A DNA stretch of 64,000 nucleotides, taken from positions 1 to 64,000 of the forward strand of contig BTVJ01000013.1 in assembly GCA_045863395.1 (NCBI GenBank), written 5' to 3'. The notes below the pieces were generated by a model. That model ran no database searches and had not been told where the DNA came from. It saw only the letters and a program-made list of their open reading frames with translations. How positions within the stretch are numbered: position 1 is the stretch's first letter; every line of letters begins with the position of its first letter. Both the position numbers and the translations under genes were made by a program. Source of the DNA: Myxococcales bacterium. Its GTDB lineage: Bacteria; Myxococcota_A; UBA9042; JABWCM01; BTVJ01. Shown here piece after piece: positions 14,937-33,018 of the stretch.

Positions 14937-14952
14937 CGCGGGGGGAGCGTTC

Positions 14953-16488
14953 GTGAGAGTCACCGCCCTGCTCGCCGCTCTCCTCTTCGCCGTGCCCGCG
15001 CGCGCCGAGGTGGAGTTCCGCTACAACGGCAGCATCGAAAGCGACGTGCGCTTCGCCTTCCCGGGCAAGGACGAGCCGGACGGGGTCGCGGACTTCCGCT
15101 TCGTGCGCAGCGACACCTGGGCGCGGTTCACGGGCAAGCTGGACGTCGGCTGGAGCATCCGGGCGGTCGCCGACGTGCAGCTCCTCTTCACGGGGCGCAC
15201 CGGGGTCACCGGCGGGGAGGAGCTGGTCCGGCGCGTCGAGGTGGACCCGGTCCAGATCGAGTCCGACGCGGTCTTCGTGGAGGTCCTCGACCTGATCACC
15301 GAGGGGCTCGACGTGAAGGTGGGGCGCCAGGTCCTGCGCTGGGGCACGGGCGACCAGTTCAACCCGACCACCAACCTGAACCCCCTCGACCTGGAAGACC
15401 CGCTCAAGTTCGGCGAGCGCATCGCCAACGAGATGATCGTGCTGTCCTACACCCCGCCCATCGAGTACGAGGGCGACGGCCCCGCCCCGTTCGACGAGGT
15501 GAGCCTGACCGTGGCGGTGGCGCCATTCTTCCGGCCCGCGCAGCTCCCCGAGAGCGCGCTGCTCGCCTTCAGCGACCGGAGCCAGTTCAACCGCCTCGTG
15601 AAGGGGGACCAGCTCAAGCCGCTGCTGGAGCAGGAGGGGTGGTACCTGGACGCGGGCGGCAAGGTGATCTACGACGTGCGGGTCGACACCCCGGAGCCGA
15701 CCTTCGAGAACATCCAGGCCGCCGTGCGCCTCGCCTGGGCCTTCTTCGGGGTGGACATGAGCGTGTCGTGGAGCCACGCCTTCCACGACCTGCCCCGCGC
15801 CGAGAAGGTCTACGCCAGCGACCTCTTCCTGCCCAAGGTGCCGCTCGCGCCTCCTACGGACGTCAAGGCGGTGCTCGAAGAGCTCGACATGAGCAGCACC
15901 ACCGTCACCAACGAGGTGCACCTGGCCTACGCCCGGAAGGACGTCATCGGGGCGGACTTCTCGGCCAGCCTGGACTTCCTCGGGGGCCTCGGCGTGTGGG
16001 CCGAGTTTGCGTGGACCTTCCACGACGATCTCTATCGCTTCACCCGCACCAGCGCCCCCTACCTGCCGGTGGGCGGCGGCACCAAGGTGGAGGGCGTCGA
16101 GAAGCACATCCTGGAGCGGGAGCTGGCAAAGGGCGGCTTCTGGAAGCTCGTCGCGGGCATGGACTACACCATCATGCCCTGGTGGTACGTCAACGTGCAG
16201 TATCTGCACGGCTTCCCGGACGAGTTCGGCGAGGACGACCTCAAGGACTACTTCGTCGCCGGCAGCGACTTCAAGATGTTCCGCGACCAGATGCTGCTAC
16301 GCCTCTTCGCCATCGTCCAGGTCCAGGACCAGTCGACGGTGCTCTACCCCCAGCTCTCGTTCATGTTCTGGCAGAACACGGACATCACGCTCGGGGCGCT
16401 CGCCTACACCGGTGGCGCCGACACCAAGTTCGGCAACCGCCTGACGGGGCCGAACACCGTGTTCCTGAAAGGAAAGCTGTACTTCTGA
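14953..16488 (+). CDS. Outer-membrane beta-barrel (DUF1302-like)
   Basis: Signal peptide, KVGRQVLRWGTGDQFNP motif, amphipathic strands, C-terminal YF. Confidence 0.8.
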   Translation: MRVTALLAALLFAVPARAEVEFRYNGSIESDVRFAFPGKDEPDGVADFRFVRSDTWARFTGKLDVGWSIRAVADVQLLFTGRTGVTGGEELVRRVEVDPVQIESDAVFVEVLDLITEGLDVKVGRQVLRWGTGDQFNPTTNLNPLDLEDPLKFGERIANEMIVLSYTPPIEYEGDGPAPFDEVSLTVAVAPFFRPAQLPESALLAFSDRSQFNRLVKGDQLKPLLEQEGWYLDAGGKVIYDVRVDTPEPTFENIQAAVRLAWAFFGVDMSVSWSHAFHDLPRAEKVYASDLFLPKVPLAPPTDVKAVLEELDMSSTTVTNEVHLAYARKDVIGADFSASLDFLGGLGVWAEFAWTFHDDLYRFTRTSAPYLPVGGGTKVEGVEKHILERELAKGGFWKLVAGMDYTIMPWWYVNVQYLHGFPDEFGEDDLKDYFVAGSDFKMFRDQMLLRLFAIVQVQDQSTVLYPQLSFMFWQNTDITLGALAYTGGADTKFGNRLTGPNTVFLKGKLYF

Positions 16489-18438: not shown

Positions 18439-18629
18439 CGCCGCAGCAGCCAGTAGAGCGCCATGGCGATGACCGCGAGCCAGAGCGCGATGTCCAGCGC
18501 CCTGACCCACGGGCCTCGCGGCTTGCTCGGGCCGCCGCTCGTCATGCGCTTCATGCCGCCACGCATGCCGCTCAACAGGCCGCCGGGCTTCCCGGATGTC
18601 CCCTTCCCCCTGGTGTGCTTCTTCGTCAT
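18435..18629 (-). CDS. Small basic protein with C-terminal TM helix
   Basis: 64 aa; Lys/Arg/Gly-rich N-terminus, then ALDIALWLAVIAMALYWLL. Confidence 0.55.
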   Translation of the reverse strand: MTKKHTRGKGTSGKPGGLLSGMRGGMKRMTSGGPSKPRGPWVRALDIALWLAVIAMALYWLLRR

Positions 18630-18685
18630 GGACCGAGCATAGCGGCTTTGACCCATCCTGTGGTGACGAACTGTGCTCCGCAGCG

Positions 18686-18710
18686 GATTGTGCTGATTTC
18701 GCGCACAATC
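18686..18710. promoter_or_regulatory. Inverted repeat GATTGTGC-N9-GCACAATC, candidate operator
   Basis: Perfect 8-bp arms in the AT-richer divergent intergenic region. Confidence 0.45.
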
Positions 18711-18787
18711 AAGTCCTGAAAATGCCGTTTGTACGCACAGTGGGCGCCTTCTACCCTGCAAGGGTCAACAGCAAGGCAGGAGGAACC

Positions 18788-20458
18788 ATGAAGCTCTCCC
18801 GACTCGCGCGGATGATCACGCCGCGCTCGTTCATCTCCGTGACATGCGCCGCGCTCATGGCGTGTGCGGCAGACCCAGCCTCGGACGCCTCGCTCCAGCT
18901 CGGCGCACCCGCGCCAGCCGTACCCAGCGCGAAGGAGCTGCCGGCCGGCACGGGCGCTCCGCCCGCCACCGAGGCTGACGACGACCCGGGCGGCGCGCTG
19001 CCAGCCCCGCAGGCCCCGGAGTCTCCAGAGGATCCGAGGAACCCCACCAACCCCGAGAGTCCCGAGCGCCCCGCTGCGCCCACCGCGCCCCTCGCAGTGG
19101 ACCTGGCCTGCGGCGACGCGCCCCTCTGGTGGCACCACGACGTATGGTCCTACGGCGATACGGCGCCGCTGTTCGACTTCAGCCCGAACGGGGGCCTGCT
19201 CGTCAGGGGCGGCGTGTTCTCGGGCAGCGTGCTCCGCGTGGCCGACGGCTCGGTCGCGGGCTCCATCGGGCGCTCCGTGGGGCAGGACACCGTCGCAGGC
19301 TGGGTCCAGAGCGCCGGACCCCACCTCATCGACGGCGCCGTCGAGGTCGTGAGCCTGGGGACGGGCGACCCGCTGTATCAGGTCACCGTTCCCCCCATGG
19401 CGGCGTACACGTTCGGCGTCGCGGCCATCAGCCAGGGGGGCGAGCGCCTGGTGGCGCTGAGCTGCGGGCACGAGCCCGGCTCCGAGACCGGCGACCTGCG
19501 GCTGACGGCCTGGAAGCCCGGTGTCTACACATGGGCCGACCTCCTGCTGGACGTGCCGCTCGGCCCGACGGGGCACTGCATCCTCGGGCAGATGACCATG
19601 CAGCGGGACCTGCGCCTGCTGCCCGACGGCAGCGCGGCGCTCGTCTCGGCCGGCGGCGCGCTCTCCCTCGTAGACCTGACCACGGGCGCCGTCACCACGG
19701 CGGACCTGGGTCTCGGAGCGCCGGCCGTCACCGAGCCGCCCATGGCCTACCTCTACACGTCGCGCATCCTCTCCATGGCGGTGAGCCCGGACGGCGCGCT
19801 CGCTGCCATCGTCGCCGAGGACGGCGTGCTGCGCCTGTTCTCCTTGCCGAGCTTGGCGCCCGTTGGTGAGCTGGCCGTCCCGGTGGGCGTGGCCAACGCC
19901 TGCACCTACATCCCCACCACCGACTCTCCAGTGGCCTTCTCGGCGGATGGCCTCCTGCTCGCACACATGGGCGAAGGCGGCGCCATCGTGGTGCGCCAGA
20001 GCGCGGATCTCGCCGTCGTGACCACGCTGGCGGCTCCGGAGGGCGCCGGCCTCTGCGAGGGGATCGTCGACCACCGCACCCCGCAGGCCATCCGGTTCTC
20101 TCCCGACGGTGCACGGCTTGCCGTCGCCTACGAGGACGGCGTGGCCCTGTGGGGCTGCGGGCCCTCCACTGCCCCCGCTCCGACGACGCTGACCGGCGAC
20201 CTGTGGGGCTCCACGGCGCTCGCCGCCGGGGAGGAGGGCGCGTGGGCCGCCCTGGGGTGGACGGGCGCCGGCGAGGCGGTCACCGTCAAGCGCTGGTTCA
20301 TCGACGACGCGCCCGCCGGAGAGCCCTCGCTCCATGGCGCGCTCCGTCTCGCCTTCCCGGAGCCGGGCGCGCACACGGTCCGCGTGGAGCTGGACGACGG
20401 CCTGAGCACGGCCTCGGCGAGCCTCACCGTGGTGGTGGAGCAGGCCGCGGCCCCCTGA
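18788..20458 (+). CDS. Lipoprotein with WD40-like beta-propeller and C-terminal PKD/Ig-like domain
   Basis: AGGAGG RBS; ALMAC lipobox; FSPNG, VSPDG, FSADG, FSPDG blades; FPEPGAHTVRVEL. Confidence 0.8.
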   Translation: MKLSRLARMITPRSFISVTCAALMACAADPASDASLQLGAPAPAVPSAKELPAGTGAPPATEADDDPGGALPAPQAPESPEDPRNPTNPESPERPAAPTAPLAVDLACGDAPLWWHHDVWSYGDTAPLFDFSPNGGLLVRGGVFSGSVLRVADGSVAGSIGRSVGQDTVAGWVQSAGPHLIDGAVEVVSLGTGDPLYQVTVPPMAAYTFGVAAISQGGERLVALSCGHEPGSETGDLRLTAWKPGVYTWADLLLDVPLGPTGHCILGQMTMQRDLRLLPDGSAALVSAGGALSLVDLTTGAVTTADLGLGAPAVTEPPMAYLYTSRILSMAVSPDGALAAIVAEDGVLRLFSLPSLAPVGELAVPVGVANACTYIPTTDSPVAFSADGLLLAHMGEGGAIVVRQSADLAVVTTLAAPEGAGLCEGIVDHRTPQAIRFSPDGARLAVAYEDGVALWGCGPSTAPAPTTLTGDLWGSTALAAGEEGAWAALGWTGAGEAVTVKRWFIDDAPAGEPSLHGALRLAFPEPGAHTVRVELDDGLSTASASLTVVVEQAAAP

Positions 20459-20552
20459 CGGCGGGCCACTGTCCACTCCCACTTTTGCCTTGGCCGAGCG
20501 CTTTCGTCATCATGACGTTCCGCGCGCTGGGGCGTGGTCTGGGAGTGGGCGA

Positions 20553-22601
20553 GTGAGCAACATCGACGGGACGCAATCGCACGGGGGTGACCCCTGCCAG
20601 GGACCGAGTGAGCCGCTGGAGGCGCTGCGCGCGGAGAGGGACGCGGCGCTCCGGCAGGTGGCGGAGCTGAGGTCGCTCCTGGTGCTGGGCGGCGGCGATG
20701 GCGAGGCTGCGGGCGCGCAGCGGGCCATCATGCTCCGCCTTGGCGCCGCCATCGGCGCCAGCCACGAGGGCGTCGGTGTCTGGGGCCTCGACGACCGCTT
20801 CCTCTTCGTGAACGACGCCTTGGCGCGCATGCACGGGTACGGCCCCCAGGAGCTGCTCGGTAGCTCCTGGCGCACGCTGGCCCCGCCTGACCGCCCCACG
20901 GCGCTGGACGCCGCCATCGGCGCGGCGCTCAGGGACCCCGTTCGGCGCCGCTGGGACGGGGAGCTGGAGGCAGTCCGACGGGACGGCACCCGCTTCCCCG
21001 TGGACGTGCAGCTCTCGTCGCTGCCGGGCCCGGACGGCGGCCACGCAGGCGCGGTCTGCATCGTCCGCGACATCACCGAGCGGCGAGCCTTCGAGGCCGA
21101 GCTGCTGCGCCTGCGCACCGCCGTCGAGGCGTCGGGGGAGGCGATCTTCCTGACCAACCGCAATGGCCTGATCACCTACGTAAACCCGGAGTTTACGCGA
21201 CTATACGGTTGGACCGCCGAGGAGGTGGTCGGCCAGGTGACCCCCCGCATCCTCAAGAGCGGCGCGCTGACGCGCCAGCAGTACGAGGAGTTCTGGGGTG
21301 AGATCCTGGCGCGCAGGGTCCTTCGGGTGGAGCTCCCGAACCGGGCCAAGGACGGCCGCGAGGTGTGGATCGACGGCTCCGCAAACCCCATCCTCGACGA
21401 GCGCGGCGAGATCGTCGGCTTCCTGGCCATCCAGCGCGACATCACCGAGCGGCGCCGCCTGGCGGACCAGCTCGTCCGGGCTCAGAAGATGGAGGCGGTC
21501 GGGCGCCTGGCCGGGGGCATCGCCCACGACTACAACAACATCCTGTCCGTGATCATGGGCTACGCAGACCTGCTGCTGTCGGAGCTGGACGGCGCGGACC
21601 CCATCCGCGGCGACATCGACGAGATCCACCGGGCGGCAGGGAGGGCCGCCGCACTGACGCGCCAGCTCCTGGTGTTCAGCCGCCGCGAGGTGTCCCGGCC
21701 CGAGATCGTCGACATCAACGCGGTGGTGTCGGGCGTGGACCGCTTGCTGCGCCGCGCCGTGGGAGAGGACGTGGCGCTCCACCTGGAGCTCGACCCCACC
21801 CTGCCCTACGTCCACATCGACGCGAGCCACGTCGAGCAGATCCTCATGAACCTGGTGGTCAACGCCCGGGACGCCACCCAGGGCGGGGGGCGCATCGCCA
21901 TCGTCACGGGGCACCGGGACGTCTCGGCGGACGAGGCTGCGTCGCTGGACCTGCCCACGGGCGGCCGCTACGTGACGCTCGAGGTCAACGATACGGGCCA
22001 CGGCATGGGGCCCGACGTGGCAGCCCGGGCCTTCGACCCCTTCTTCACGACCAAGGCCAAGGGGCTGGGCACGGGCCTCGGGCTCTCCATCGTCTACGCC
22101 ATCGTCAAGCAGGCGGAGGGCGCCATCACCATCGAGTCGGAGCCAGACCGCGGGACGAAGGCGCGGGTCCTGCTCCGCGCCACCTCCGCGGCGCCCGCCG
22201 CGGCGCGCGTGACGGCGACGGAGACAGGGGCCGCGGCGCGCCGCGAGACCATCCTGCTCGTCGAAGACGAGGATCAGGTCCGCGCCCTGACCCACCGCTT
22301 CCTGCTGCAGAAGGGCTACCGGGTGATCGAGGCGCGGAACGCCGGCGAGGCCATCCTCCTCATCGAGCAAGGGACCGACCGCATCGACCTGCTCCTGACC
22401 GACGTGGTCATGCCCCAGTTCTCCGGGACCCGCCTCGCGCAGCGCCTGACGAAGGTGCTGCCCGAGCTGCGCGTGCTCTTCATGTCCGGCTACTCGGATG
22501 CGGTGGACCGGGAGACCATCCACCAGATGGGCGCCGACCTGGTGATCAAGCCGTTCAACCGGCAGGACCTGCTCAACGCCGTCGCCCGCGCCCTAGCCTG
22601 A
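20553..22601 (+). CDS. PAS-PAS hybrid sensor histidine kinase/response regulator
   Basis: Two PAS domains (DITERR), GGIAHDYNN H-box, NLVVNARDA, DTGHGM, FFTTK, GTGLGL, receiver LLLTDVVMP. Confidence 0.95.
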   Translation: MSNIDGTQSHGGDPCQGPSEPLEALRAERDAALRQVAELRSLLVLGGGDGEAAGAQRAIMLRLGAAIGASHEGVGVWGLDDRFLFVNDALARMHGYGPQELLGSSWRTLAPPDRPTALDAAIGAALRDPVRRRWDGELEAVRRDGTRFPVDVQLSSLPGPDGGHAGAVCIVRDITERRAFEAELLRLRTAVEASGEAIFLTNRNGLITYVNPEFTRLYGWTAEEVVGQVTPRILKSGALTRQQYEEFWGEILARRVLRVELPNRAKDGREVWIDGSANPILDERGEIVGFLAIQRDITERRRLADQLVRAQKMEAVGRLAGGIAHDYNNILSVIMGYADLLLSELDGADPIRGDIDEIHRAAGRAAALTRQLLVFSRREVSRPEIVDINAVVSGVDRLLRRAVGEDVALHLELDPTLPYVHIDASHVEQILMNLVVNARDATQGGGRIAIVTGHRDVSADEAASLDLPTGGRYVTLEVNDTGHGMGPDVAARAFDPFFTTKAKGLGTGLGLSIVYAIVKQAEGAITIESEPDRGTKARVLLRATSAAPAAARVTATETGAAARRETILLVEDEDQVRALTHRFLLQKGYRVIEARNAGEAILLIEQGTDRIDLLLTDVVMPQFSGTRLAQRLTKVLPELRVLFMSGYSDAVDRETIHQMGADLVIKPFNRQDLLNAVARALA

Positions 22602-23345
22602 CAGCCACTGGTGGATGGTCGCCGCCATCCACTCCGGCGCGTCCAGGGAGAGATCATGGCCCGCGTCCGGGTGGACGTGGAGCGGGGCGGTGAAGCGCTT
22701 TGCGAGCGCGGCGGGGCAAGACGGGTGGGTGAGGGGATCCGCCCCTCCGGACAAGACGAGGACGGGCGGCACGAGCGTAGGCGGGGCGGAGAAGCGCATC
22801 GCCGCGAGGAGCTGACGCAGGACGTTGGCCCGCCGCATGGGGCGCAGCGCGGCGATGGCGGCCCAGCGCTCCGCGACCGCGGGGAGCGCTGGGTGGAGCC
22901 GGGTCGTCGCCGCGAGGACCAGGCGCTCGCGCGTCAGTGGATCGCTCTCCGCCAGGGCGCGCAGCACCCGCAGCACGGCCGTCGGGCGCATGCGCCGCCA
23001 GGGCGCGCTCGTGTTGCGCGCGCTCGTGTTGGCGAGGACCACCGCGCCAAAGTCCCCCGGGTGCCTCGCCCCCCACTCCATGGCGACCATGCCGCCGAGC
23101 GAGATGCCGAGGAGGCCCCACCGGGTCCCGGCGCTTGCCAGCGGACGCCACCGCTCCCGCAGGTCGCCGACGATTCCCGCGATGGACGGGGGGCAGGTGG
23201 TCCCTCGCCGGTCCCCGGCGCCGGGGAGATCGAGGGTGTGCACCCGCGCCCCCAGCGTTGCGGCGAGGGCGCTCGGGAACTCTCCCCAGTGCCCCTGCTC
23301 CCGCGCCAGGCCACGCAGGATGAGCCAGTCCGTGATGGTCGCCAT
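22593..23345 (-). CDS. Alpha/beta fold hydrolase
   Basis: LRGLAREQGHWG, DLPGAG, GISLGG, DPL, AGHDL. Confidence 0.9.
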   Translation of the reverse strand: MATITDWLILRGLAREQGHWGEFPSALAATLGARVHTLDLPGAGDRRGTTCPPSIAGIVGDLRERWRPLASAGTRWGLLGISLGGMVAMEWGARHPGDFGAVVLANTSARNTSAPWRRMRPTAVLRVLRALAESDPLTRERLVLAATTRLHPALPAVAERWAAIAALRPMRRANVLRQLLAAMRFSAPPTLVPPVLVLSGGADPLTHPSCPAALAKRFTAPLHVHPDAGHDLSLDAPEWMAATIHQWLSG

Positions 23346-23386
23346 ACTCGATGCCAGCCCTCGGGTCGTCCCCCCCGCGCCGTGAG

Positions 23387-23415
23387 GGTGTAGCCACCCA
23401 TGGGGCGCGGGTCAA
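23387..23415 (-). promoter_or_regulatory. Putative sigma70 promoter TTGACC-N17-TACACC for the hydrolase
   Basis: 17-nt spacing, about 42 nt upstream of ATG 23345. Confidence 0.55.
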
Positions 23416-23430
23416 CGGCTGCGGGCCACA

Positions 23431-23444
23431 TTGATCCAGATCAA
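23431..23444. promoter_or_regulatory. FNR/CRP-family box TTGAT-CCAG-ATCAA
   Basis: Exact match to the TTGAT-N4-ATCAA consensus in a divergent intergenic region. Confidence 0.8.
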
Positions 23445-23647
23445 GTCCACGGGGGGCCCGTCGGCGCGCCTTGCCGGTGAACTGGGACCAGCGCCGGGGG
23501 ACTTGCCGGCGCGCGGACCATCCCCAATCGGCTTGTAACCATTAGAGTTACCCGCCCACCGGGCGCCGCTGCGTCGAATGCCGACAAAGTGGATGCGCAT
23601 TGCTCCGGGCCATGAAACGCAGGGCCGCTCCGGGCCCCGGCGCGACG

Positions 23648-23676
23648 TTGACACGAATTTCGGCCAATGCTACTGC
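23648..23676 (+). promoter_or_regulatory. Putative sigma70 promoter TTGACA-N17-TACTGC (TG extended -10) of the porin-cytochrome operon
   Basis: Perfect -35, 17-nt spacer, about 55 nt before ATG 23732. Confidence 0.6.
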
Positions 23677-23731
23677 GGAGGCGTGGGACCGTGGGTCAGA
23701 CCTGACCACACTCGACCGGGAGCCCCTCGCC

Positions 23732-25210
23732 ATGCGTCTTCGTCTCGCGCTGCTTCCTCTGCTGCTCGCCTCTGCGCCTGCGCTCGCCACCGAGGGTGAC
23801 GTGGAGCCCGATGCCGTCGTCACCGGCGCCGACGAGGGCGCCGGCGAGGGTACCAATGAAGACGGCTGGCGCTTCCGGGGCTTCTTCCTGGAGGAGTACC
23901 GCGGTCGAGCGACGTCGGCGCCGGGAGCAGAGCCCGGCGAGGATCCGGCCCTGAGCCTCCCCGACGAGTCGGACCACGACCTGCGCCTGTTCGTGGACAT
24001 GAGCGTGACGGACCCTGGCGACCACTTCCGCGCCCAGGCCACCGCCGCCCTGTGGGTGGATCTGGACGGCTACCCTGACAGCCTCCAGTCGGGCCTGGCG
24101 TCCATGCGCGACTACGACAAGCCCTGGTCCCAGGTGTGGGGGGATGTCTACGTGCTGTCCGCGGAGTATCACTCGGAGGGGTGGCTTCGCCTGGCCCGCG
24201 GCGGTCGCCAGGTGGCCGAGACCGGACGCCCCACCACCTTCGACGGCGCGACGTTCGTGTTCCAGTTGGAGCCGCGCATGGTGGAGGCCTTCGTCTTCGG
24301 CGGTCGCACCCACCACTTCTTCGAGACGACCCTGGAGCCATTCCAGGACTGGATGGCGGCCGGCGGGTTCACCTTCCGCCCGCTGGAGGAGCTGAAGATC
24401 GAGGTGGAGTACCGCCTCGCCATCGAGCAGATCCCCGAGCACGCGCAGGCCATCTCTGGGCGGGGGCTGGAGGAGGAGCCGCAGGAGGAGCTGGTCGACC
24501 ACTCCTACGAGCTGACCATGTGGTACCGGCGCGGCGACTGGCTTGGGCTCAAGCTGCGCCTCGGCGGCATCAACGAGGACTTCGCGCGGGCGGGCCTCGG
24601 GCTGGCGCTCACCGAGACTGAGTGGAACATGGGGATGGACGTGAAGCTGGACGCCCAGACCACCACGCTCCACTCCCTGGCCGAGGACGACAACCCCTTC
24701 TACGCGGTGCTCCGCGAGAGCCAGGCGAACCTCAAGTGGCGCCTCGACCTGTGGAAGATCTGGGACACGCGGGTGGGGGACTACGGGCTGCACCTGGGCT
24801 GGAATGCCCGGGAGCTCCTCGAAGGAGAGGAGGGCCCCTTCAACCGCAACGTGGGCCGCATCTACCTGTCGGCAGACGCGCGGGACATCGGCATCGTCGG
24901 CCCCTTCTTCGGGGTGTCCATGGAGGCCCACTACAGCCGCGCAGACGCCTTCACGGACGACCTGATCCTGACGGTGGGGGGCTCGGCGGGCTGGGATGAC
25001 CGAAAGGTACGGGCCGAGATCGGGACCTTCTACCAGCGGTTCAAGTACGACTATTACAAAGACGCCAACGAGGTGGCGGACGTGCGCACGTACTTCGCGT
25101 CCATCGGGTACAAGCCGCTCGCGTGGTTCGCCGTGCGGGGGCGCTACGAGTACGAGGCGGTCGACAGGGACATCCACACCTTCACCCTGGCGCTGAGCCA
25201 GCAGTACTGA
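23732..25210 (+). CDS. Outer-membrane beta-barrel (porin of a porin-cytochrome complex)
   Basis: Signal MRLRLALLPLLLASAPALA, GGRQ and FDGA motifs, many amphipathic strands, C-terminal Tyr; first gene of the cytochrome operon. Confidence 0.8.
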   Translation: MRLRLALLPLLLASAPALATEGDVEPDAVVTGADEGAGEGTNEDGWRFRGFFLEEYRGRATSAPGAEPGEDPALSLPDESDHDLRLFVDMSVTDPGDHFRAQATAALWVDLDGYPDSLQSGLASMRDYDKPWSQVWGDVYVLSAEYHSEGWLRLARGGRQVAETGRPTTFDGATFVFQLEPRMVEAFVFGGRTHHFFETTLEPFQDWMAAGGFTFRPLEELKIEVEYRLAIEQIPEHAQAISGRGLEEEPQEELVDHSYELTMWYRRGDWLGLKLRLGGINEDFARAGLGLALTETEWNMGMDVKLDAQTTTLHSLAEDDNPFYAVLRESQANLKWRLDLWKIWDTRVGDYGLHLGWNARELLEGEEGPFNRNVGRIYLSADARDIGIVGPFFGVSMEAHYSRADAFTDDLILTVGGSAGWDDRKVRAEIGTFYQRFKYDYYKDANEVADVRTYFASIGYKPLAWFAVRGRYEYEAVDRDIHTFTLALSQQY

Positions 25211-25220
25211 GGCGGACACG

Positions 25221-26054
25221 ATGGCGCGGAACACCAAGACGGTGCGGCTCGCGACGCTCCTCGCGTTCATCGGGGCGTCCCCGGCGCTGGCGGATGACCC
25301 CAAGCCGTTCTCGCACAAGTACCACATCGAGGAGGAGGGGCAGGGCTGCAAGGACTGCCACGACGCAGAGTCGGACAAGCCCTTCCCGCCGCTCAACAAG
25401 CAGGCGTGCATCGACTGCCACGACGAGATGCCCGCGTATGCGCCCCCGGTGCGGGCGAAGCGGATGCCCATCAAGTTCCCCCACGCCAAGCACGTGGAGG
25501 CGCAGAGCTGCGAGGACTGCCACAAGCCCACGATCACCGAGACCCAGAAGGCCGGCGAGCCCGTGCTGACGTTCGCGAGGTGCGGGGCGTGCCACGAGGA
25601 GTCGGGCCTGGAGGTCCCCGTGTCCAAGTGCGCGGCCTGCCACGGGGTGGACATGCGCCGCGTGAAGCCGGCCGACCACGCCGTCACGTGGAAGACGCGG
25701 CACGGCCAGGCGGCGACCTGGCGGGTGTTCGAGCAGCACGGCCAGGACTGCAAGACCTGCCACCAGCAGGACGCCTGCGCGAGCTGCCACAAGAGCGAGC
25801 GCCCGCGGAGCCACACGGCGCTCTGGCGCGTGCGCACCCACGGCGTCGCCGCCGAGTGGGACCGGGACACCTGCAAGACCTGTCACGAGTCGGGGACCTG
25901 CGTGCAGTGCCACAAGAGCAACGCCCCGCTCAACCACCGGGGCGGCTGGATCGCGCGGCACGGCATGACCGCGGAGTCCAAGACGGACGCGAAGTGCGGC
26001 ACGTGCCACGCGAGCGCCGAGTGCGTCGCCTGCCACAGCGGAGAGTTGAGATGA
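25221..26054 (+). CDS. Periplasmic 11-heme cytochrome c
   Basis: Signal peptide (ASPALA); 11 CxxCH motifs; FSHKYH and FPHAKH c3/c7-like motifs. Confidence 0.95.
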   Translation: MARNTKTVRLATLLAFIGASPALADDPKPFSHKYHIEEEGQGCKDCHDAESDKPFPPLNKQACIDCHDEMPAYAPPVRAKRMPIKFPHAKHVEAQSCEDCHKPTITETQKAGEPVLTFARCGACHEESGLEVPVSKCAACHGVDMRRVKPADHAVTWKTRHGQAATWRVFEQHGQDCKTCHQQDACASCHKSERPRSHTALWRVRTHGVAAEWDRDTCKTCHESGTCVQCHKSNAPLNHRGGWIARHGMTAESKTDAKCGTCHASAECVACHSGELR

Positions 26055-29000
26055 GCCTGCGACCGCAACTTGTCGTCATCGGGCTGGCCCTGCTCGTGGG
26101 CGCGTGCGAGCCGTCGACCCTCCCCGACGGGCAGCCGCCGGAGGGAGAGGCCACGTGCAACTCCTGCCACGGCAACGAGGCAAACGCAGCCCCTCCGGTA
26201 GCCACGGACGGCTCCACCGAGACGACCGCCATCGGCGTGGGGGCCCACCAGGCGCACCTCCTCGGCGGCAAGTTCCGCAAAGGCATCGCCTGCGAGGAGT
26301 GCCACGTGGTGCCCGAGACGGTGGAAGCGGAGGGCCACGTGGACCCGCTCCCCGCCGAGGTGACCTTCGGGACGCTGGCGACGGCTCACGCGGCCCAGGC
26401 GCGCTGGCTGCGCGACAGGGCGACATGCGCGGGCACCTACTGCCACGGCTCCACGATGCAGGACGGGACCCTGAACGACCCGGTGTGGACGAGGGGGAAC
26501 GATCCCGTCGTCCTGGACTGTGGCTCCTGCCACGGCAACCCACCGCCGGCGCCGCACCCGGTGGCGACGGAGTGCTTCCGGTGCCACTTGGAGACGGTGG
26601 GGACGGATGGGACCATCGACCTGCTGGGCGGGCGACACATCGACGGGACGGTGCAGGTCAACCCGCAGGGCTGCGACACCTGCCACGGGAGCGGCGGCGT
26701 GGCGGCGCCACCGCGGGACCTCGGCAACAACACCGACACGACGGCGCGGGGCGTCGGAGCCCACCGGGCGCACCTCGGCGCGTCGGAGTGGCACGCGGAG
26801 GTCGCGTGCGCGGAGTGTCACGCGGTGCCCGTGGAGGTGAACGACCCGGGCCACGTGGACTCGGCGCTCCCGGCGGAGCTGACGTGGGGCGCGCTGGCGA
26901 CGAAGAACGGCGCCGAGCCCAAGTGGCACCCGGCCGCGACGAGCTGCTCGGGGTCGTACTGCCATGGCGGCGGCTTCTCGCAGGCAACGCAGGGCGTTCA
27001 CACGGTGCCCGTCTGGACCCAGGTGGACGGCACGCAGGCGAGCTGCGGCTCCTGTCACGGCAACCCGCCGAAGGCGCCGCACCCGGACCGGACAGACTGC
27101 GCGAGCTGCCACGGCGAGGTGGTCGCGGCGGACGGCACCTTCACGAGCCCGGAGCTGCACATCGACGGCACGGTGCAGGTGGGGCCGCTCGGGTGCGACT
27201 CCTGCCACGGGAGCGGCGGAGTCGCCGCGCCGCCCGCCGATCTGGCCGGAAACGAGGACACCAGCGCCCTCGGCGTGGGGGCCCACCGCAAGCACCTGGG
27301 GGTCTCCGCGTGGCACCGCGAGGTCCCCTGCGCGGCCTGCCACGTGGTGCCGGCAGAGCTGGGCGACGCCGGACACATCGACACGGCGCCGGCAGAGGTG
27401 GTGTGGGGCGACCTGGCGGATGCCAAGGGGACCGCGCCGACGTGGGACCGGGCGACGGCCACGTGCAGCGGCTCCTACTGCCATGGCGCGACCCTGGACG
27501 GTGGAGGAGCGAAGGCGCCCGTGTGGACCCAGGTGGACGGCGCGCAGGCGACGTGCGACTCCTGCCACGGCAACCCGCCCGGCGGTGACCACCCCACCCG
27601 GTCCGACTGCGCGAGCTGCCACGACGCGGTGGTGGCCCCGGACGGCACGTTCGTCAACGCGGCCCTCCACATCGACGGGCAGGTCCAGGTGGGCACGCTC
27701 GGTTGCTCGAGCTGCCACGGCAGTGGGGCGAACGCGGCGCCCCCGCTGGACCTGACTGGGGGAGCGGACACGGCGAGCGTCTCGGTGGGCGCCCACCAGA
27801 AGCACCTGGGGGCATCCGACTGGCGCGCGCAGATCGCGTGCAGCTCCTGCCACGTCGTACCGGCGACCGTCGGGGCGGCGGGCCACGCAGACACGCCGCC
27901 CCCCGCCGAGGTGACCTGGGGCGGGGTCGCGGTGGCGGGCGGTGCCACGCCGGTGTGGGATCGCGGAGCGGCGACGTGCAGCGGGTCCTGGTGCCACGGC
28001 GCGGGGCTCTCGGGCGGCACCCTGACGGCGCCGGTCTGGACGAACCTGGACGGCACGCAGGCCGTGTGCGGCACCTGCCACGGCCTGCCGCCCGGCGACG
28101 GGCACGTGCCGCGCACGGACTGCGCGAGCTGCCATGGCGCGGTGGTCGACGCGGCGGGCGGCTTCGTGGACCCGTCGCTGCACATCAACGGGCAGGTCGA
28201 GGTGGTCGCCCTGACGTGCAGCACCTGCCACGGCGGCGCGCAGAGCGCAGCGCCCCCCGTGGACGTGAAGGGGCAGACGGACACGAAGCTCGCGAGCGTC
28301 GGCGCGCACCAGGCCCACGTCGGGGCGTCGACCTGGCACAAGGAGATCCCGTGCTCCACCTGCCACGTGATGCCCGCGACCGTGGACGCACCGGGCCACA
28401 TGGACGACGACCTGCCCGCCGAGGTGAGCATCGGCGGCGTGGCGACGGCGGGCGGGCTCACTCCGACCTGGGACGCCGGGACCGCCACGTGCAGCAACAC
28501 CTGGTGCCACGGTACGTCCCTCGGCGGCACCTTCACGGCGCCGAAGTGGACCCAGGTGGACGGCACCCAGGCTGCGTGCGGGACCTGCCACGGGCTGCCC
28601 CCCGGAGGAACGCACGTCCAACGCGACGACTGCGCCACCTGCCACGGCGAGGTGGTCACGGCGAACGGCTTCGCCAACCCGGCGCTCCACGTGGACGGCA
28701 CCGTGCAGGTCAGCGCGCTGGGCTGCGACGCCTGCCACGGGTCGGGGGGCAACCCGGCGCCGCCCGTGGACCTGGGCGGCAACACGGCGACCACGGCGCT
28801 CGGAGTCGGCGCCCACCAGGCGCACCTGAGCCCGTCGACCTGGCACAAGGACGTGGCCTGTGGGGAGTGCCACAAGGTGCCGAGCGCGTATGGAGACGCC
28901 GGCCACGCCGACACGACAGGACCTGCCGAGCTGGTCTGGGGCGCGCTGGCGACGGCCCAGGGCGCCAAGCCCGTGTGGAACGCAGGCACGGCGACGTGCA

Positions 29001-29257
29001 GCGGGTCCTACTGCCACGGCGGGACGGCGTCGGGCGGGCAGCACACGGCCCCCGTCTGGACCCAGGTGGACGGCACGCAGACCACCTGCACGAGCTGCCA
29101 CGGCATGCCGCCAGAGGCACCGCACCCCGCGGTGGACAACTGCTTCGCCTGCCACGCCTGCACGGTGACGCCGGACAACCTGGGCATCAACCCGGCCCAC
29201 AAGGACGTCCACATCGACGGGAAGCCCACCATGGCGCTCGGGAGCTGCGATCTGTAG
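26051..29257 (+). CDS. 30-heme lipoprotein cytochrome c with six CxxxxCH/CxxCH modules
   Basis: ATGA overlap with upstream stop; LLVGAC lipobox; 24 CxxCH plus 6 CxxxxCH in six repeats of 169-174 aa. Confidence 0.95.
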   Translation: MSLRPQLVVIGLALLVGACEPSTLPDGQPPEGEATCNSCHGNEANAAPPVATDGSTETTAIGVGAHQAHLLGGKFRKGIACEECHVVPETVEAEGHVDPLPAEVTFGTLATAHAAQARWLRDRATCAGTYCHGSTMQDGTLNDPVWTRGNDPVVLDCGSCHGNPPPAPHPVATECFRCHLETVGTDGTIDLLGGRHIDGTVQVNPQGCDTCHGSGGVAAPPRDLGNNTDTTARGVGAHRAHLGASEWHAEVACAECHAVPVEVNDPGHVDSALPAELTWGALATKNGAEPKWHPAATSCSGSYCHGGGFSQATQGVHTVPVWTQVDGTQASCGSCHGNPPKAPHPDRTDCASCHGEVVAADGTFTSPELHIDGTVQVGPLGCDSCHGSGGVAAPPADLAGNEDTSALGVGAHRKHLGVSAWHREVPCAACHVVPAELGDAGHIDTAPAEVVWGDLADAKGTAPTWDRATATCSGSYCHGATLDGGGAKAPVWTQVDGAQATCDSCHGNPPGGDHPTRSDCASCHDAVVAPDGTFVNAALHIDGQVQVGTLGCSSCHGSGANAAPPLDLTGGADTASVSVGAHQKHLGASDWRAQIACSSCHVVPATVGAAGHADTPPPAEVTWGGVAVAGGATPVWDRGAATCSGSWCHGAGLSGGTLTAPVWTNLDGTQAVCGTCHGLPPGDGHVPRTDCASCHGAVVDAAGGFVDPSLHINGQVEVVALTCSTCHGGAQSAAPPVDVKGQTDTKLASVGAHQAHVGASTWHKEIPCSTCHVMPATVDAPGHMDDDLPAEVSIGGVATAGGLTPTWDAGTATCSNTWCHGTSLGGTFTAPKWTQVDGTQAACGTCHGLPPGGTHVQRDDCATCHGEVVTANGFANPALHVDGTVQVSALGCDACHGSGGNPAPPVDLGGNTATTALGVGAHQAHLSPSTWHKDVACGECHKVPSAYGDAGHADTTGPAELVWGALATAQGAKPVWNAGTATCSGSYCHGGTASGGQHTAPVWTQVDGTQTTCTSCHGMPPEAPHPAVDNCFACHACTVTPDNLGINPAHKDVHIDGKPTMALGSCDL

Positions 29258-29295
29258 GCGGGCGGCGCGAAGTACACGGACCAATTGCCCTTGAT

Positions 29296-29931
29296 CTACG
29301 CCTGAGCCTCCCCGCCACCCTGCCCCAGCCGATCCAGCACCGTGTCCACGAGCCAGTGCAGGTGCGCGCGGCGCTCCGCGATGCCCGCGTCCGACAGGGG
29401 GTCGCTGCCCCACACCGGCGCCAGAGCCGGGCCGTAGGTGAACAGGTTGATCACCGCCCCCGAGAAGGTCACGAAGAAGTGGCGCGCCGCGAGCGGGCCC
29501 TGCTGGGGGGCGATCTCCGACAGGGCCGCCTCCGTCCAGCGGAACAGGGAGGCCAGGCTGTGCTGGATCAGGTCCAGGCGCCCGTCGAGGCTCGCGACCT
29601 CGCGCTGCACGAGGCGCGGATAGCGGCGGTTCCGGTTGATGAAGTCCAGGTAGGCGTCGACGACGCCGTGGAGGCGCTCCCGCGGCGGGCGGTCCACGGC
29701 GGCGGCCGCCTCGAGCGCCGCCCGGTGCGCGGCGTAGTAGCGGTCGAGCACCTGCTGGAACAGGCCCTCCTTGCTGCGGAAGTAGTAGAAGACCAGCGCC
29801 TTCTGGACGCCCGCGCGCTCCGTCACGTCGCGGATGCTCACCGCGTCGAAGCCCCGCTCCCCGAACAGCTCGTCCGCCGCCTCGAGGATGATCGACGCGG
29901 TGTCGGACTCCGCGAGCCCTGCCTTCGCCAT
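29296..29931 (-). CDS. TetR/AcrR family transcriptional regulator
   Basis: ILEAADELFGERGFDAVSIRDVTERAGVQKALVFYYFRSKEGL HTH. Confidence 0.95.
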   Translation of the reverse strand: MAKAGLAESDTASIILEAADELFGERGFDAVSIRDVTERAGVQKALVFYYFRSKEGLFQQVLDRYYAAHRAALEAAAAVDRPPRERLHGVVDAYLDFINRNRRYPRLVQREVASLDGRLDLIQHSLASLFRWTEAALSEIAPQQGPLAARHFFVTFSGAVINLFTYGPALAPVWGSDPLSDAGIAERRAHLHWLVDTVLDRLGQGGGEAQA

Positions 29932-29976
29932 GGGTCACTCCCTGCGTTCAAGCGGTCTCCGAGCGGTCCGTCGATC

Positions 29977-30009
29977 TTTTGACCGAACGGTTTGACCAAT
30001 CGGTCAAAA
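29977..30009. promoter_or_regulatory. TetR-type operator(s): TTTGACCAATCGGTCAAA plus an overlapping half-site
   Basis: Palindrome at 29991-30008; outer inverted repeat TTTTGACCGA/TCGGTCAAAA between the divergent tetR and ThDP genes. Confidence 0.8.
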
Positions 30010-30062
30010 CATGCCATGAATGAGCCGTCCGGTCCAGAACGACAGACGCATCAGGAGGCGCC

Positions 30063-31838
30063 ATGAAGATCCAGGGGCTGCGCAAAGGAGAGCAGGTCAA
30101 GGGCGGGGAGATCATCTCCCGTATGCTGGCGGCGGAGGGCATCCGCAACGTCTTCGGGATCATCGACGGCACCTACTTCGGGCTGTACTCGACGCTCGGC
30201 CCGAACGGGATCCGGCTCGTCACGCCGCGTCACGAGACCTCCGCGCTGCACATGGCCGGGGCCTACGCGCGCATCACGGGCAAGCTCGGCGTCGCCATCG
30301 CGAGCAACGGCCCGGGCGTCGCCAACGCGCTGCCGGGCGTGGCCGTCGAGCAGGCGGAGGGCAACCGCGTGCTGCTGATCACGAGCAGCCGGCGCGACTC
30401 CATCATCTACCCGGACCGGGGCGGCGCCTACCAGTACTTCCCGCACGTGGACGTCATCCGACCCATGGCCAAGTGGAGCCACGCGGTCACCTCCCCCGAG
30501 CGCGTCGCCGAGCTGCTGCGCAAGGCGCTGCGGGCCTGCATGACGGGGCGGCCGGGCGTCGTCCACTTGGATGTGCCAGAGACGATCCTCAACGGCAGCT
30601 TCCCGGCCGCCTCGGCAGGCATGTGGGCCGACCCGCAAGCCGACCTGCCGCCGCTCGTGCCGACGCGCGCGCAGATCGAGCAGGCGGCGACGCTGCTCCT
30701 GAAGGCGAAGCGGCCGCTGATCCACGCTGGGTCAGGCGTCGTCCACGCGGGGGCCTTCGACGAGCTGCGGGACCTTGCGGCCCTGCTCGACGCGCCGATC
30801 ACGACGAGCTGGGGCGCCCGCGCCGCGCTGGACGAGCGGTGGCCGCAGGCGGTGCCCATGCTCTACGTGAGCGCTGTCAACGCCGCGCGCAAGGAGGCGG
30901 ACCAGGTGCTCGTGCTCGGCTCGCGCCTCGGCGAGACCGACTGGTGGGGCAAGGCGCCCTACTGGGCTCCCCCCGGCGAGCAGGGGCTGATCCAGGTGGA
31001 CATCGACAGCGACGCCATCGGACGCAACCGCCCGGCGGATCTGCCCATCCAGGCGGACGTCAAGGAGACCCTGACCGCGCTGATCGCCGAGCTCAAGACG
31101 CGGCGCCTGACGACGGGGCAGCGCGGGCGCAAGGAGTTCGTCGCGACGCTGCGGGCGACCTGCGTGGCGCGCCGGGCGAAGCTCGACGAGCACCTGAAGA
31201 AGCAGGGCATCCCCATGCATCCGGCCCATGTGGCGACCATCTGCCAGCAGGTGCTGCCGGAGGACTCCATCCTGGTCATCGACGGCGGCAACACGTCCAT
31301 CTGGGCGCACTTCTACCACGAGGGGCGCACGCCGGGCGCCATCCTGGGCACGCCGAAGATGGGCATGCTGGGCGCCGGCGTGGCGCAGGCGCTGGGCGCG
31401 AAGGTCGCCTTCCCGGACCGGGTCGTCTACTGCATCATCGGCGACGGGGCCATGGGCTTCCACCCGCAGGAGGTGGAGACCGCGGTGCGCAACGGCCTGC
31501 CGGTCATCACCCTCGTGCTCTGCGACAAGCAGTGGGGCATGGTGAAGATGAACCAGCAGTTCGCGCTCAAGCCCGTGAAGACGCTGCTCATGAAGTCGCT
31601 CTCGCCGGAGGAGACCATCAACGCGGACCTGGGCGAGATCGAGTTCGACCAGCTCGGGCGGTCCATGGGCGCCTACGGGGAGCGGGTCTCGGACGCGGGC
31701 GGGCTCGCGAACGCCGTGCGCCGCGCCGTGGCGTCGGGGCGGCCGGCGGTCATCCACGTGGACGTGGACCCGGTCGCGCACATGTGGGCCCCGAACCTGA
31801 AGGACTTCAAGGACATGCACCAAGAGCCCAAGGTCTGA
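30063..31838 (+). CDS. Thiamine diphosphate-dependent enzyme (acetolactate synthase-like family)
   Basis: PRHE, GPGVAN, GRPGVVHLDVP, IDGGN, GDGAMG ThDP motif, WGMV. Confidence 0.93.
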   Translation: MKIQGLRKGEQVKGGEIISRMLAAEGIRNVFGIIDGTYFGLYSTLGPNGIRLVTPRHETSALHMAGAYARITGKLGVAIASNGPGVANALPGVAVEQAEGNRVLLITSSRRDSIIYPDRGGAYQYFPHVDVIRPMAKWSHAVTSPERVAELLRKALRACMTGRPGVVHLDVPETILNGSFPAASAGMWADPQADLPPLVPTRAQIEQAATLLLKAKRPLIHAGSGVVHAGAFDELRDLAALLDAPITTSWGARAALDERWPQAVPMLYVSAVNAARKEADQVLVLGSRLGETDWWGKAPYWAPPGEQGLIQVDIDSDAIGRNRPADLPIQADVKETLTALIAELKTRRLTTGQRGRKEFVATLRATCVARRAKLDEHLKKQGIPMHPAHVATICQQVLPEDSILVIDGGNTSIWAHFYHEGRTPGAILGTPKMGMLGAGVAQALGAKVAFPDRVVYCIIGDGAMGFHPQEVETAVRNGLPVITLVLCDKQWGMVKMNQQFALKPVKTLLMKSLSPEETINADLGEIEFDQLGRSMGAYGERVSDAGGLANAVRRAVASGRPAVIHVDVDPVAHMWAPNLKDFKDMHQEPKV

Positions 31839-31869
31839 CGGCGGCGGAGGACGGGGAGACTCGAGCGGG

Positions 31870-32020
31870 ATGCACCACATCGACCAGGCGGTGCTGAACT
31901 TCAACCAGGCCGGGTTTGCCGCGCTGAACGTGATCCTCGGGCTGCACCGTCGCCGGCATGTCGCTGGCGTGGTTCTGCTCGCGGCGGCCCCTGCCCCGCA
32001 CCCTGGAGGCGACACTGTGA
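31870..32020 (+). pseudogene. Internally deleted bile acid:sodium symporter (BASS)-like remnant
   Basis: N-terminus MHHIDQAVLNFNQAGFAALNVILGL joined out of frame to TVAGMSLAWFCSRRP...TGA, whose stop overlaps the next GTG. Confidence 0.6.
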
Positions 32021-33018
32021 GCACTCACGAGGGACCGGACGCGCGGCGCGTCTTGATCACGGGCGCATCGGGCAGCGTCGGCCGGCGGCTGGTCGAGGCC
32101 ATGGCCCAGCGCATGGGGGAGCAGGCGCGCGGGGCCGACGGGCCGACGCTCGGCTTCGTCCTGGCGACCGATATTCGCGACGTGAACCCCTCGTCGCGCC
32201 TGCCCGGGATCGAGTATCACACCCTGGACGTGTGCGGCCCGGAGCTGGCGGCCGCGCTGCGAGGGCACCGCATCGACACCGTCGTGCACCTCGCCGCCAT
32301 CGTGACGCCGCGGCCCGGCGACACGCGGGAGCACCAGTACGCCGTGGACGTGGTCGGCACGGCCAACGTCGTCGCCGCGTGCCTCGAGGCGGGGGTGCGG
32401 CGCTTCGTCTACACGAGCAGCGGCGCCGCCTACGGCTACCACGGAGACAACGCGGCGCTGCTGGACGAGGGCGCTCCGCTGCGCGGCAACGACGCCTTCG
32501 CCTACGCGGCGCACAAGCGCATCGTGGAGGAGCAGCTCGCCGACGTCCGCCGGGAGCACCCGGAGCTCGCACAGCTCGTGCTGCGGGTCTCGACGGTGCT
32601 CGGGCCCGCCGTGCACAACCAGATCACGGCGCTGTTCGAGCGGCCGGTCGTCGTCGGCATCGCGGGAGTGGACTCGCCGTTCTGCTTCGTCTCCCAAGAG
32701 GACGTGGCCGACTGCCTGCTGCACGGGGTGCTCGGCGACCGGGCCGGCATCTACAACCTGACCGGCGACGGGGTGATGACCCTGCGGGAGATCGCCCACG
32801 CCATGGGCCGCCCCTACGTGCCGGTGCCTGAGGCGCTGCTGCACGGGGCGCTCGACCTGCTCCACAAGGCTGGCGTAGCGGCGACGGGCGGGGAGCAGCT
32901 CCTGTTCCTGCGGCACCGCCCGGTGCTCTCCAACGAGCGGCTCAAACGGGAGCTGGGCTATGTCCCGCGCCAGACGAGCCGCGAGGTCTTCGAGACCTAC
33001 CGCCAGCGGCGGGCCTGA
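32017..33018 (+). CDS. NAD-dependent epimerase/dehydratase (extended SDR)
   Basis: VLITGASGSVG, VVHLAA, YTSSGAAYG, YAAHK; GGAGG RBS before GTG 32017. Confidence 0.9.
   Translation: MSTHEGPDARRVLITGASGSVGRRLVEAMAQRMGEQARGADGPTLGFVLATDIRDVNPSSRLPGIEYHTLDVCGPELAAALRGHRIDTVVHLAAIVTPRPGDTREHQYAVDVVGTANVVAACLEAGVRRFVYTSSGAAYGYHGDNAALLDEGAPLRGNDAFAYAAHKRIVEEQLADVRREHPELAQLVLRVSTVLGPAVHNQITALFERPVVVGIAGVDSPFCFVSQEDVADCLLHGVLGDRAGIYNLTGDGVMTLREIAHAMGRPYVPVPEALLHGALDLLHKAGVAATGGEQLLFLRHRPVLSNERLKRELGYVPRQTSREVFETYRQRRA

Follow-up and report, generated by a model that had tools for sequence, protein, structure and literature searches.

How might a Myxococcota-like bacterium move electrons across its outer membrane? 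The question is raised by three genes at positions 23732 to 29257 of a 64,000-nucleotide (nt) stretch of DNA with a G+C content (GC) of ~71% (contig BTVJ01000013.1, positions 1 to 64,000, of the Myxococcales bacterium assembly GCA_045863395.1), hereafter termed the window. Gene 1 encodes a predicted outer-membrane β-barrel, gene 2 a cytochrome c with 11 heme-binding motifs, and gene 3 a predicted lipoprotein with 30. Gene 2 starts 10 nt after the stop codon of gene 1, and genes 2 and 3 are joined by an ATGA overlap. An earlier reading of the bare sequence (the original prediction) had proposed a porin-cytochrome conduit at this locus; the tight coupling of the genes, the two heme counts and the assignment of a signal peptide to the barrel and of a lipoprotein to gene 3, on which it drew, all agree with our translations and motif counts. 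We propose that the three products assemble into a porin-cytochrome conduit of the Geobacter Pcc type, through which electrons would pass between periplasm and cell surface, a reading to which we assign a probability of about 0.7.

Gene 1 encodes a predicted plug-less outer-membrane barrel

The gene 1 product starts with MRLRLALLPLLLASAPALA, which reads as a signal peptide, has no cysteine, and ends in an aromatic residue (...SQQY) that is kept in the consensus of the barrel family. It matched no Pfam or NCBIfam family at E ≤ 0.01. The AlphaFold2 model, computed with 24 homologues, is a barrel of 22 strands with no plug domain, at a predicted local distance difference test score (pLDDT) of 77.4 and a predicted template modelling score of 0.72. 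The signal peptide is separated from the first strand by only ~25 residues, which are disordered and acidic. Together, the signal peptide, the even number of strands and the C-terminal aromatic residue are the features of an outer-membrane β-barrel, as had been proposed for this gene.

Structural similarity search using Foldseek returned generic barrels only, and exhaustive structural alignment placed the 22-strand barrels of TonB-dependent transporters at the top ranks, with 377–382 residues aligned. The model superimposes on Cir with a Z-score of 16.6 and a root-mean-square deviation of 4.1 Å over 377 residues, and on BT1762 with a Z-score of 16.6. The 22-strand barrels of TonB-dependent transporters enclose a plug domain of ~150 residues. 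Since barrels of the same size hold such a plug, the modelled plug-less barrel should have room in its lumen for a thin multiheme rod. In the PDB, the barrel profile matched the sequences of two ATP-phosphoribosyltransferases (E = 0.0034, ~90 residues), which we take as chance. The nearest clusters in the atlas carry no informative name; one was automatically named “Alginate export domain-containing protein” and is commonest in Deferribacterota, which serves as a lead only.

Gene 2 encodes an 11-heme cytochrome with two distinct halves

The gene 2 product carries exactly 11 CxxCH motifs behind a signal peptide, and matches the Pfam families Cytochrome_C7 (1e-15) and Cytochrom_c3_2 (1e-10). The N-terminal half is c7/c3-like and contains five hemes. 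The C-terminal half comprises three tandem two-heme repeats of the form P.DH..W..HG..CxxCH-x4-CxxCH, whose motif doublets occupy residues 177–190, 218–231 and 259–272; the doublets had been foreseen with a spacing of three or four residues, and all three have four and none three. The FxHxxH motifs that had also been noted in this protein occur twice, as FSHKYH (residues 30–35) and FPHAKH (residues 86–91), and both are invariant in 19 aligned homologues.

In the same alignment, all 11 CxxCH motifs and exactly 11 further histidines are invariant. As this provides one invariant non-motif histidine for each heme, the protein fits a set of eleven bis-histidine hemes. They are packed into ~253 mature residues, giving a density of 23 residues per heme. 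PDB sequence search matched the first c7-like stretch alone, to ActA-type and c7-like proteins, and left MtrA unmatched.

Gene 3 encodes a predicted lipoprotein of six five-heme modules

The N-terminus of the gene 3 product, MSLRPQLVVIGLALLVGAC, contains a lipobox (LLVGAC, residues 14–19), the Cys19 of which is kept in at least 90% of 45 aligned three-module homologues. With its lipobox cysteine following a hydrophobic signal, the product is a predicted bacterial lipoprotein. A tether of ~16 residues, rich in proline, glycine and glutamate, follows Cys19 and leads to six five-heme modules. In total, 24 CxxCH and six CxxxxCH motifs give 30 heme sites, and 60 of the 63 cysteines lie within these motifs. 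The NCBIfam model TIGR01904 (CxxxxCH/CxxCH) scored 233 bits against a cut-off of 27, over six stretches, and Pfam PF09698 scored 57 bits against a cut-off of 21.7. The 8.77-Mb genome encodes no other TIGR01904 protein. The gene 3 product has at least 617 shorter relatives, and the best-scoring ones listed are mostly three-module forms of ~550 residues.

The six modules, each of ~170 residues, share 44–64% identity at the protein level and 58–71% at the DNA level, so the duplications that produced them must be old. Each module has ten invariant cysteines (four CxxCH and one CxxxxCH) and ten conserved histidines for its five hemes. Five of these histidines belong to the heme motifs, and the other five are found in GAHxxH, GH.D, PP...H and an HIDG linker. 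The linker histidine is present in five of the six alignment rows, the one after module 1 lying where module 2 begins. Across the 45 homologues, no motif residue of the first three modules varies, and the modules have neither CxxCK nor an invariant methionine. Because each heme has a conserved candidate sixth histidine and CxxCK is absent, the cytochromes appear to form a pure electron-transfer chain that lacks an open catalytic site. PDB sequence search found no solved structure related to the 30-heme protein.

The repeats are no artefact of assembly, since an independent contig of 4714 nt from another run (termed X3) reproduces them: it covers positions 25062–29775, the repeated gene included, with 10 mismatches.

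The three genes are conserved together and the number of modules varies

A pattern scan over one genome per species found 34 loci that encode a relative of the barrel. Their labels are Myxococcota, Myxococcales, Polyangia-type or Deltaproteobacteria in 29 cases, in keeping with the Myxococcota-like host that had been suggested, and proteobacteria, Pseudomonadota or Gammaproteobacteria in the other five. A match to the 11-heme protein is present in 32 of the 34 loci, the remaining two being cut short. In 20 loci, exactly 11 CxxCH motifs are encoded by the gene that immediately follows the barrel, and in two loci the 11-heme-like part belongs to a larger fusion protein of 18 or 25 hemes. A CxxxxCH protein is encoded in 28 loci; of the six that lack one, three are truncated and three have a different 9–10-heme cytochrome. 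The gene order is changed in eight loci, with the components kept. A distant relative of 53% GC with a very divergent barrel, one of the barrel-bearing genomes in a sample of the phylum Myxococcota, has the same order as the window, namely a 513-residue barrel, a 264-residue 11-heme protein and a 1069-residue lipoprotein with 24 + 7 motifs. The joint conservation of the trio, on which the original prediction hinged, is thus borne out by 34 loci in metagenome-assembled genomes and by this relative, rearrangements included. The operon is real and conserved, and probably a functional porin-cytochrome conduit.

The eight rearranged loci share a Polyangiaceae-type order, in which the barrel is followed by the CxxxxCH lipoprotein and then by a 27–30-heme protein with an 11-heme-like C-terminus. 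In this variant (L030–L035, L038 and L039; e.g. L031:7884-15042), the lipoprotein has one to three modules, a gap of ~1 kb precedes the 27–30-CxxCH protein, which has a signal peptide, and a 308-residue single-pass protein comes next. The latter was considered as a PCC3-type inner-membrane protein and rejected, having one hydrophobic segment and no HX13H motif. In three other loci (L012:2933-3850, L040:1491-2408 and L017:10259-11371), a 9–10-CxxCH cytochrome, with weak DmsE/OmcA-type similarity in L017, takes the place of the lipoprotein next to the barrel and the 11-heme protein. It looks like a non-orthologous replacement of the outer component.

Counted as CxxxxCH motifs per locus, the lipoprotein has one module in five loci, two in eight, three in eight, four in two, five in three, and six and seven in one each. 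In a quick maximum-likelihood tree of the barrels, from which the fragments L037 and L040 were left out, well-supported sister barrels go with different module numbers (2 versus 6, 3 versus 5, and 5 versus 4). As sister barrels differ in this way, the outer wire has apparently been lengthened and shortened repeatedly, with the barrel and its periplasmic partner retained. A variable outer lipoprotein and a conserved periplasmic cytochrome have likewise been described for Geobacter conduits, in the accessible text of Jiménez Otero et al. (PMC6148476).

Barrel and two-heme repeats recur in a wider superfamily

Searching the barrel profile against 1.84 billion representatives gave 573 matches at E ≤ 1e-3, each a representative at 50% clustering, and 128 at E ≤ 1e-30. 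Profile comparison linked the family of the window (A1) to a group of distant barrels (A5) with a probability of 100% and an E-value of 1.3e-47 over 412 columns. Ten cluster look-ups for names of the distant barrels all returned “hypothetical protein”. A search with A5 yielded 80 metagenome loci, 61 of which were evaluable, having the C-terminus of the barrel and at least 700 nt downstream; 44 had at least 900 nt more. In all 61, a cytochrome with at least four CxxCH motifs directly follows the barrel. This first partner mostly has seven hemes in ~200 residues, and sometimes 11–15. A second cytochrome is present in 43 of the 44 longer loci, with at least one CxxxxCH motif in 35 of the 43, and one outer cytochrome of the distant group, of 748 residues, scores above the TIGR01904 cut-off. 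A 9-CxxCH cytochrome of ~250–290 residues often lies just upstream of the distant barrels on the opposite strand (L048–L127, e.g. L071:5908-6759).

The profile of the 11-heme protein matches a 344-residue, 14-CxxCH protein of a 42%-GC locus (L113) over 261 columns (E = 5.6e-41), and matches a 192-residue, 7-CxxCH partner in the C-terminal repeat region only (E = 1.3e-26). The part that the 11-heme protein has in common with the 7-heme partners of distant barrels spans residues 147–271. Since the distant partners match this region, the core of the superfamily consists of the barrel and the two-heme-repeat region, and the latter may be the part that sits inside the barrel.

Operon layout, surroundings and RNA-library evidence

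The features of the operon are collected in Table 1. GC at third codon positions is 0.87–0.97 across the three frames. The promoter scan found no promoter-like site and no sigma-70 consensus, and the terminator scan found a single terminator-like site, on the minus strand within gene 1, at chance level.

Table 1. Positions of the three genes, the gene 3 modules and the upstream region in the window
Feature	Position	Strand	Basis and remarks
Upstream intergenic region, presumed promoter and 5' untranslated region	23346..23731	+	GGGAG Shine-Dalgarno-like motif ~9 nt 5' of ATG
Gene 1, predicted outer-membrane β-barrel, 492 residues	23732..25210	+	Translation, AlphaFold2 model
Gene 2, predicted periplasmic 11-heme cytochrome c, 277 residues	25221..26054	+	Translation, motif count, Pfam
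Gene 3, predicted lipoprotein 30-heme cytochrome c, 1068 residues	26051..29257	+	Translation, motif count, TIGR01904
Module 1, residues 24–195	26120..26635	+	Module alignment; 4 CxxCH + 1 CxxxxCH; 44–49% identical to other modules
Module 2, residues 196–369	26636..27157	+	Module alignment
Module 3, residues 370–539	27158..27667	+	Module alignment
Module 4, residues 540–710	27668..28180	+	Module alignment
Module 5, residues 711–879	28181..28687	+	Module alignment
Module 6, residues 880–1068, with C-terminal extension of ~20 residues	28688..29254	+	Module alignment

At least half of the sampled words of the operon are present in 20 of 24 listed public runs from seven studies; one of the 20 is possibly the source of this DNA. 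The runs are labelled as bioreactor, wastewater, sludge and aquatic metagenomes. RNA libraries account for seven of the 20, from three studies, and contain 54–93% of the sampled words. The contigs of four RNA runs were mapped on positions 20000–33000, and single contigs span the gene junctions (24453–26614 in X9; 24789–25592 and 25597–26620 in X5; 25062–29775 in X3). Contigs of X3, X5 and X9, from two studies, start at 23693–23701, which is 31–39 nt 5' of the ATG at 23732 and gives a weak hint of a transcript start. Given these contig starts, we favour the start codon at 23732 over an upstream TTG at 23600. No listed contig of the three runs covers ~23378–23693, and this region was not used as evidence.

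On the upstream flank, an alpha/beta hydrolase is encoded on the opposite strand, with a PAS hybrid histidine kinase farther out. The downstream flank has a convergent TetR regulator, followed by a thiamine pyrophosphate enzyme and dehydrogenases. None of the flanking genes (TetR, hydrolase, thiamine pyrophosphate enzyme, amidase and WD40) has a match in the related loci, and weak histidine-kinase matches lie near the trio in four of them. Because its neighbours are not conserved beside it elsewhere, the trio appears to be a self-contained cassette.

Two gene pairs upstream in the window lie on the same strand as the operon. The pair at 18596-22601 (+) encodes a 620-residue protein with weak WD40/beta-propeller matches and a 703-residue PAS-PAS hybrid histidine kinase with a receiver domain; the word depth of the kinase exceeds that of the operon in the RNA-library contigs of X3 and X5. 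The pair at 14127-16488 (+) encodes a LolA-like protein (PF17131, 7e-39) and, directly after it, a 520-residue protein with a weak DUF1302 match, which may be an outer-membrane lipoprotein-and-barrel pair.

The genome encodes about 30 multiheme cytochromes. Contig C28:71340-79442 (L129:1341-9443, outside the window) contains two Rnf/Nqr-type membrane subunits, an iron-sulfur/NAD(P)-binding flavoprotein with an RnfB-like N-terminus and an RseC-like gene, and continues with an HmcA-like class III cytochrome of 16 CxxCH motifs, a 4Fe-4S protein and a fusion of an NrfD-family membrane protein with a 5-heme domain. This Rnf-like/HmcA-like/NrfD cluster might supply periplasmic cytochromes with electrons from the inner membrane. 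Another large cluster of cytochromes, at C4:110859-116106 (L130:2860-8107, also outside the window), has three consecutive multiheme cytochrome genes with 23, 13 and, in a stop-to-stop frame, 26 CxxCH motifs; a 540-residue protein with no Pfam family follows.

Proposed electron route and alternative readings

In the proposed route, electrons would pass from the quinol pool into the periplasm by way of an inner-membrane complex whose genes lie elsewhere, one candidate being the NrfD-pentaheme fusion together with the HmcA-like 16-heme protein of contig C28. The five N-terminal, c7-like hemes of the 11-heme protein would take the electrons up, and its three C-terminal two-heme repeats would thread the plug-less barrel. 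At the outer face, the lipid-anchored 30-heme protein would receive the electrons and pass them along an all-bis-histidine chain to final acceptors such as iron or manganese oxides, humic matter, electrodes or partner cells. We infer an outward direction and a metal, a humic substance or a partner cell as the physiological acceptor, and reverse flow would be possible along the same chain.

Such a reversal is the first alternative, which we consider unlikely: the same trans-outer-membrane complex would run inward, with Fe(II), reduced humics, a cathode or a partner cell as the electron source for the respiratory chain, as proposed for MtoAB, PioAB and PCC3. The sequence sets no direction, and chains of bis-histidine multihemes are reversible, as established for Mtr and Mto. 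The bioreactor, wastewater, sludge and aquatic settings of the runs that contain the operon are habitats that switch between oxic and anoxic states. Moreover, the accessible text on PCC3 proposes oxidation for clusters with very large extracellular cytochromes (PMC5566968). However, no inner-membrane protein of the Cyc2, Mto or PCC3 type is linked to the operon, and the closest described pattern, the Geobacter Pcc, works outward. A carbon-fixation or iron-oxidizer context did not turn up, though no search was aimed at either.

The location of the 30-heme lipoprotein gives rise to a second alternative. It might face the periplasm, on the inner leaflet of the outer membrane or on the inner membrane, as a wire or an electron store, with the barrel serving as a mere anchor or being an unrelated pore. 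Very large multiheme cytochromes have been suggested to act as capacitors, in the accessible parts of two reports (PMC10734462, PMC11495043). An unrelated barrel is hard to square with the linkage of the barrel, 11-heme and CxxxxCH proteins across very distant lineages and through rearrangements. In the relatives, furthermore, it is the periplasmic partner and not the lipoprotein that grows to 27–30 hemes, which suggests that the two cytochromes occupy different compartments; a periplasmic lipoprotein thus seems quite improbable.

That the cytochromes act instead as a periplasmic or surface reductase of a soluble substrate (nitrite, selenite, tellurite or a sulfur compound) is hardly credible: although some Geobacter Ext clusters are tied to selenite and tellurite reduction in the accessible text of PMC6148476, the conserved candidate sixth ligand of every heme and the lack of CxxCK or any other sign of an open catalytic heme argue against an enzyme, and the operon has no molybdopterin, rhodanese or iron-sulfur partner.

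Several points count against the outward conduit of the Pcc type. A lipobox by itself does not prove surface exposure. The AlphaFold2 model of the first three modules, computed with no hemes, is mostly coil at a pLDDT of 76, and it has neither a Foldseek match nor a VIA match at Z ≥ 2; it is uninformative and gives no sign of a new fold. The role assigned to the barrel family is read from sequences and models. The RNA-library signal comes from assembled contigs, from which strand and expression level are not readable, and DNA carry-over is possible. The operon contains no inner-membrane quinol dehydrogenase or other partner, and its flanks are not conserved. The spread of the family is patchy: among 401 sampled Myxococcota genomes, 16 encode the barrel (10 among the 340 of high quality), and these are scattered across families. 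Finally, the operon fits the Geobacter-type Pcc pattern as judged by arrangement and sizes, and not by named Geobacter or Kuenenia sequences.

Implications

Anaeromyxobacter aside, Myxococcota are thought of as aerobic predators and degraders. If true, a conserved 41-heme outer-membrane conduit would give part of this phylum a route for extracellular respiration or electron uptake, in settings such as wastewater sludge, bioreactors and sediments with switching redox conditions. It would also provide a testable role for a barrel family that has no Pfam or NCBIfam model, and for the widespread, unstudied CxxxxCH/CxxCH cytochromes. The most interesting trait is the modular outer wire, which has one to seven five-heme units among the relatives; this natural series asks how the length of a heme wire relates to function. 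One possible but doubtful extension is that the 30-heme lipoprotein acts as a lipid-anchored nanowire made of a single polypeptide, the reach of which is genetically determined in increments of five hemes, as an alternative to polymerised filaments of the OmcS/OmcZ type. Such a wire would let Myxococcota of sludge or sediment, possibly predatory ones, exchange electrons with minerals or cells over tens of nanometres and through the floc matrix.

Comparison with known systems

With MtrCAB of Shewanella, the trio would share the working principle of a cytochrome that runs through a barrel, with a lipoprotein cytochrome as the cap. MtrB has 26 strands, compared to 22 in the barrel of the window, and the two cytochromes have 11 and 30 hemes compared to 10 and 10. 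The barrel has no match to MtrB_PioB (PF11854) or to any other Pfam or NCBIfam model at E ≤ 0.01, nor does the PDB profile search contain an MtrB chain at E ≤ 1. The cytochromes match neither DmsE/MtrA TIGR03508 nor OmcA/MtrC TIGR03507, and the chains of 6R2Q are absent from the PDB sequence searches. The Pfam MtrC/MtrF domain model scored 32.3 bits against a cut-off of 30, with no single stretch passing by itself. The trio is therefore not Mtr-like at the level of sequence families, just as the original prediction held.

The 30-heme protein is a clear member of the TIGR01904/PF09698 family, with six domain copies. This family is an annotation label only: sequence search found no solved structure for it, and literature searches found no functional study. 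Its description does not mention an association with a dedicated barrel and a partner of 11 hemes.

PCC3 clusters (He et al. 2017, PMC5566968; Hoover et al. 2023, PMC10734462) resemble the operon, as far as the accessible texts go, in combining a porin, a periplasmic cytochrome and a very large extracellular cytochrome that is built of repeats and varies in heme number. They differ in having an inner-membrane protein and a large porin, both of which are absent here (PMC5566968), and in being hosted by Proteobacteria. Their periplasmic cytochrome has ~21–27 hemes compared to 11 in the window, and a 27–30-heme protein is found in 8 of the 34 related loci.

The Ext clusters of G. sulfurreducens (ExtABCD and ExtEFG; PMC6148476) consist of the same three elements, namely a periplasmic multiheme cytochrome, an integral protein of the outer membrane and a redox lipoprotein. 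The five-heme lipoproteins ExtC and ExtF parallel the single-module relatives of the 30-heme protein. However, gene orders and heme counts differ, and the function of Ext has genetic support, whereas the trio is known from its sequence.

Literature searches found no description of this Myxococcota trio. Sequence-divergent porin-cytochrome clusters have been reported in other phyla (bioRxiv 10.64898/2026.05.27.727921), and multiheme cytochromes of sludge Myxococcota are mentioned in general terms (PMC11495043), each in the accessible part of the source. The closest likeness is with the Pcc clusters surveyed by Shi et al. 2014 (PMC4245776), which, in the accessible text, combine a porin of 18–22 transmembrane motifs, a periplasmic cytochrome of 5–14 hemes and an outer cytochrome, often with atypical motifs. 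The order of barrel, periplasmic multiheme cytochrome and multiheme lipoprotein is that of OmbB-OmaB-OmcB and the wider set, and the 22 strands and 11 hemes of the trio fall inside the published ranges. Both also have atypical motifs in the outer cytochrome, CxxxxCH in the trio, and no sequence relation to Mtr. The 344-residue, 14-CxxCH relative of the 42%-GC locus further matches the size reported for the Pcc cytochromes of Kuenenia and Anaeromyxobacter. Two differences stand out against that source: the outer cytochrome of the window has 30 motifs in six tandem modules, compared to the 1–15 typical motifs given there, and Myxococcota hosts known from Polyangia-like metagenome-assembled genomes are missing from its list, in which the Anaeromyxobacter clusters have two genes only. 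Altogether, the operon is a new branch of the known porin-cytochrome system rather than a new kind of system.

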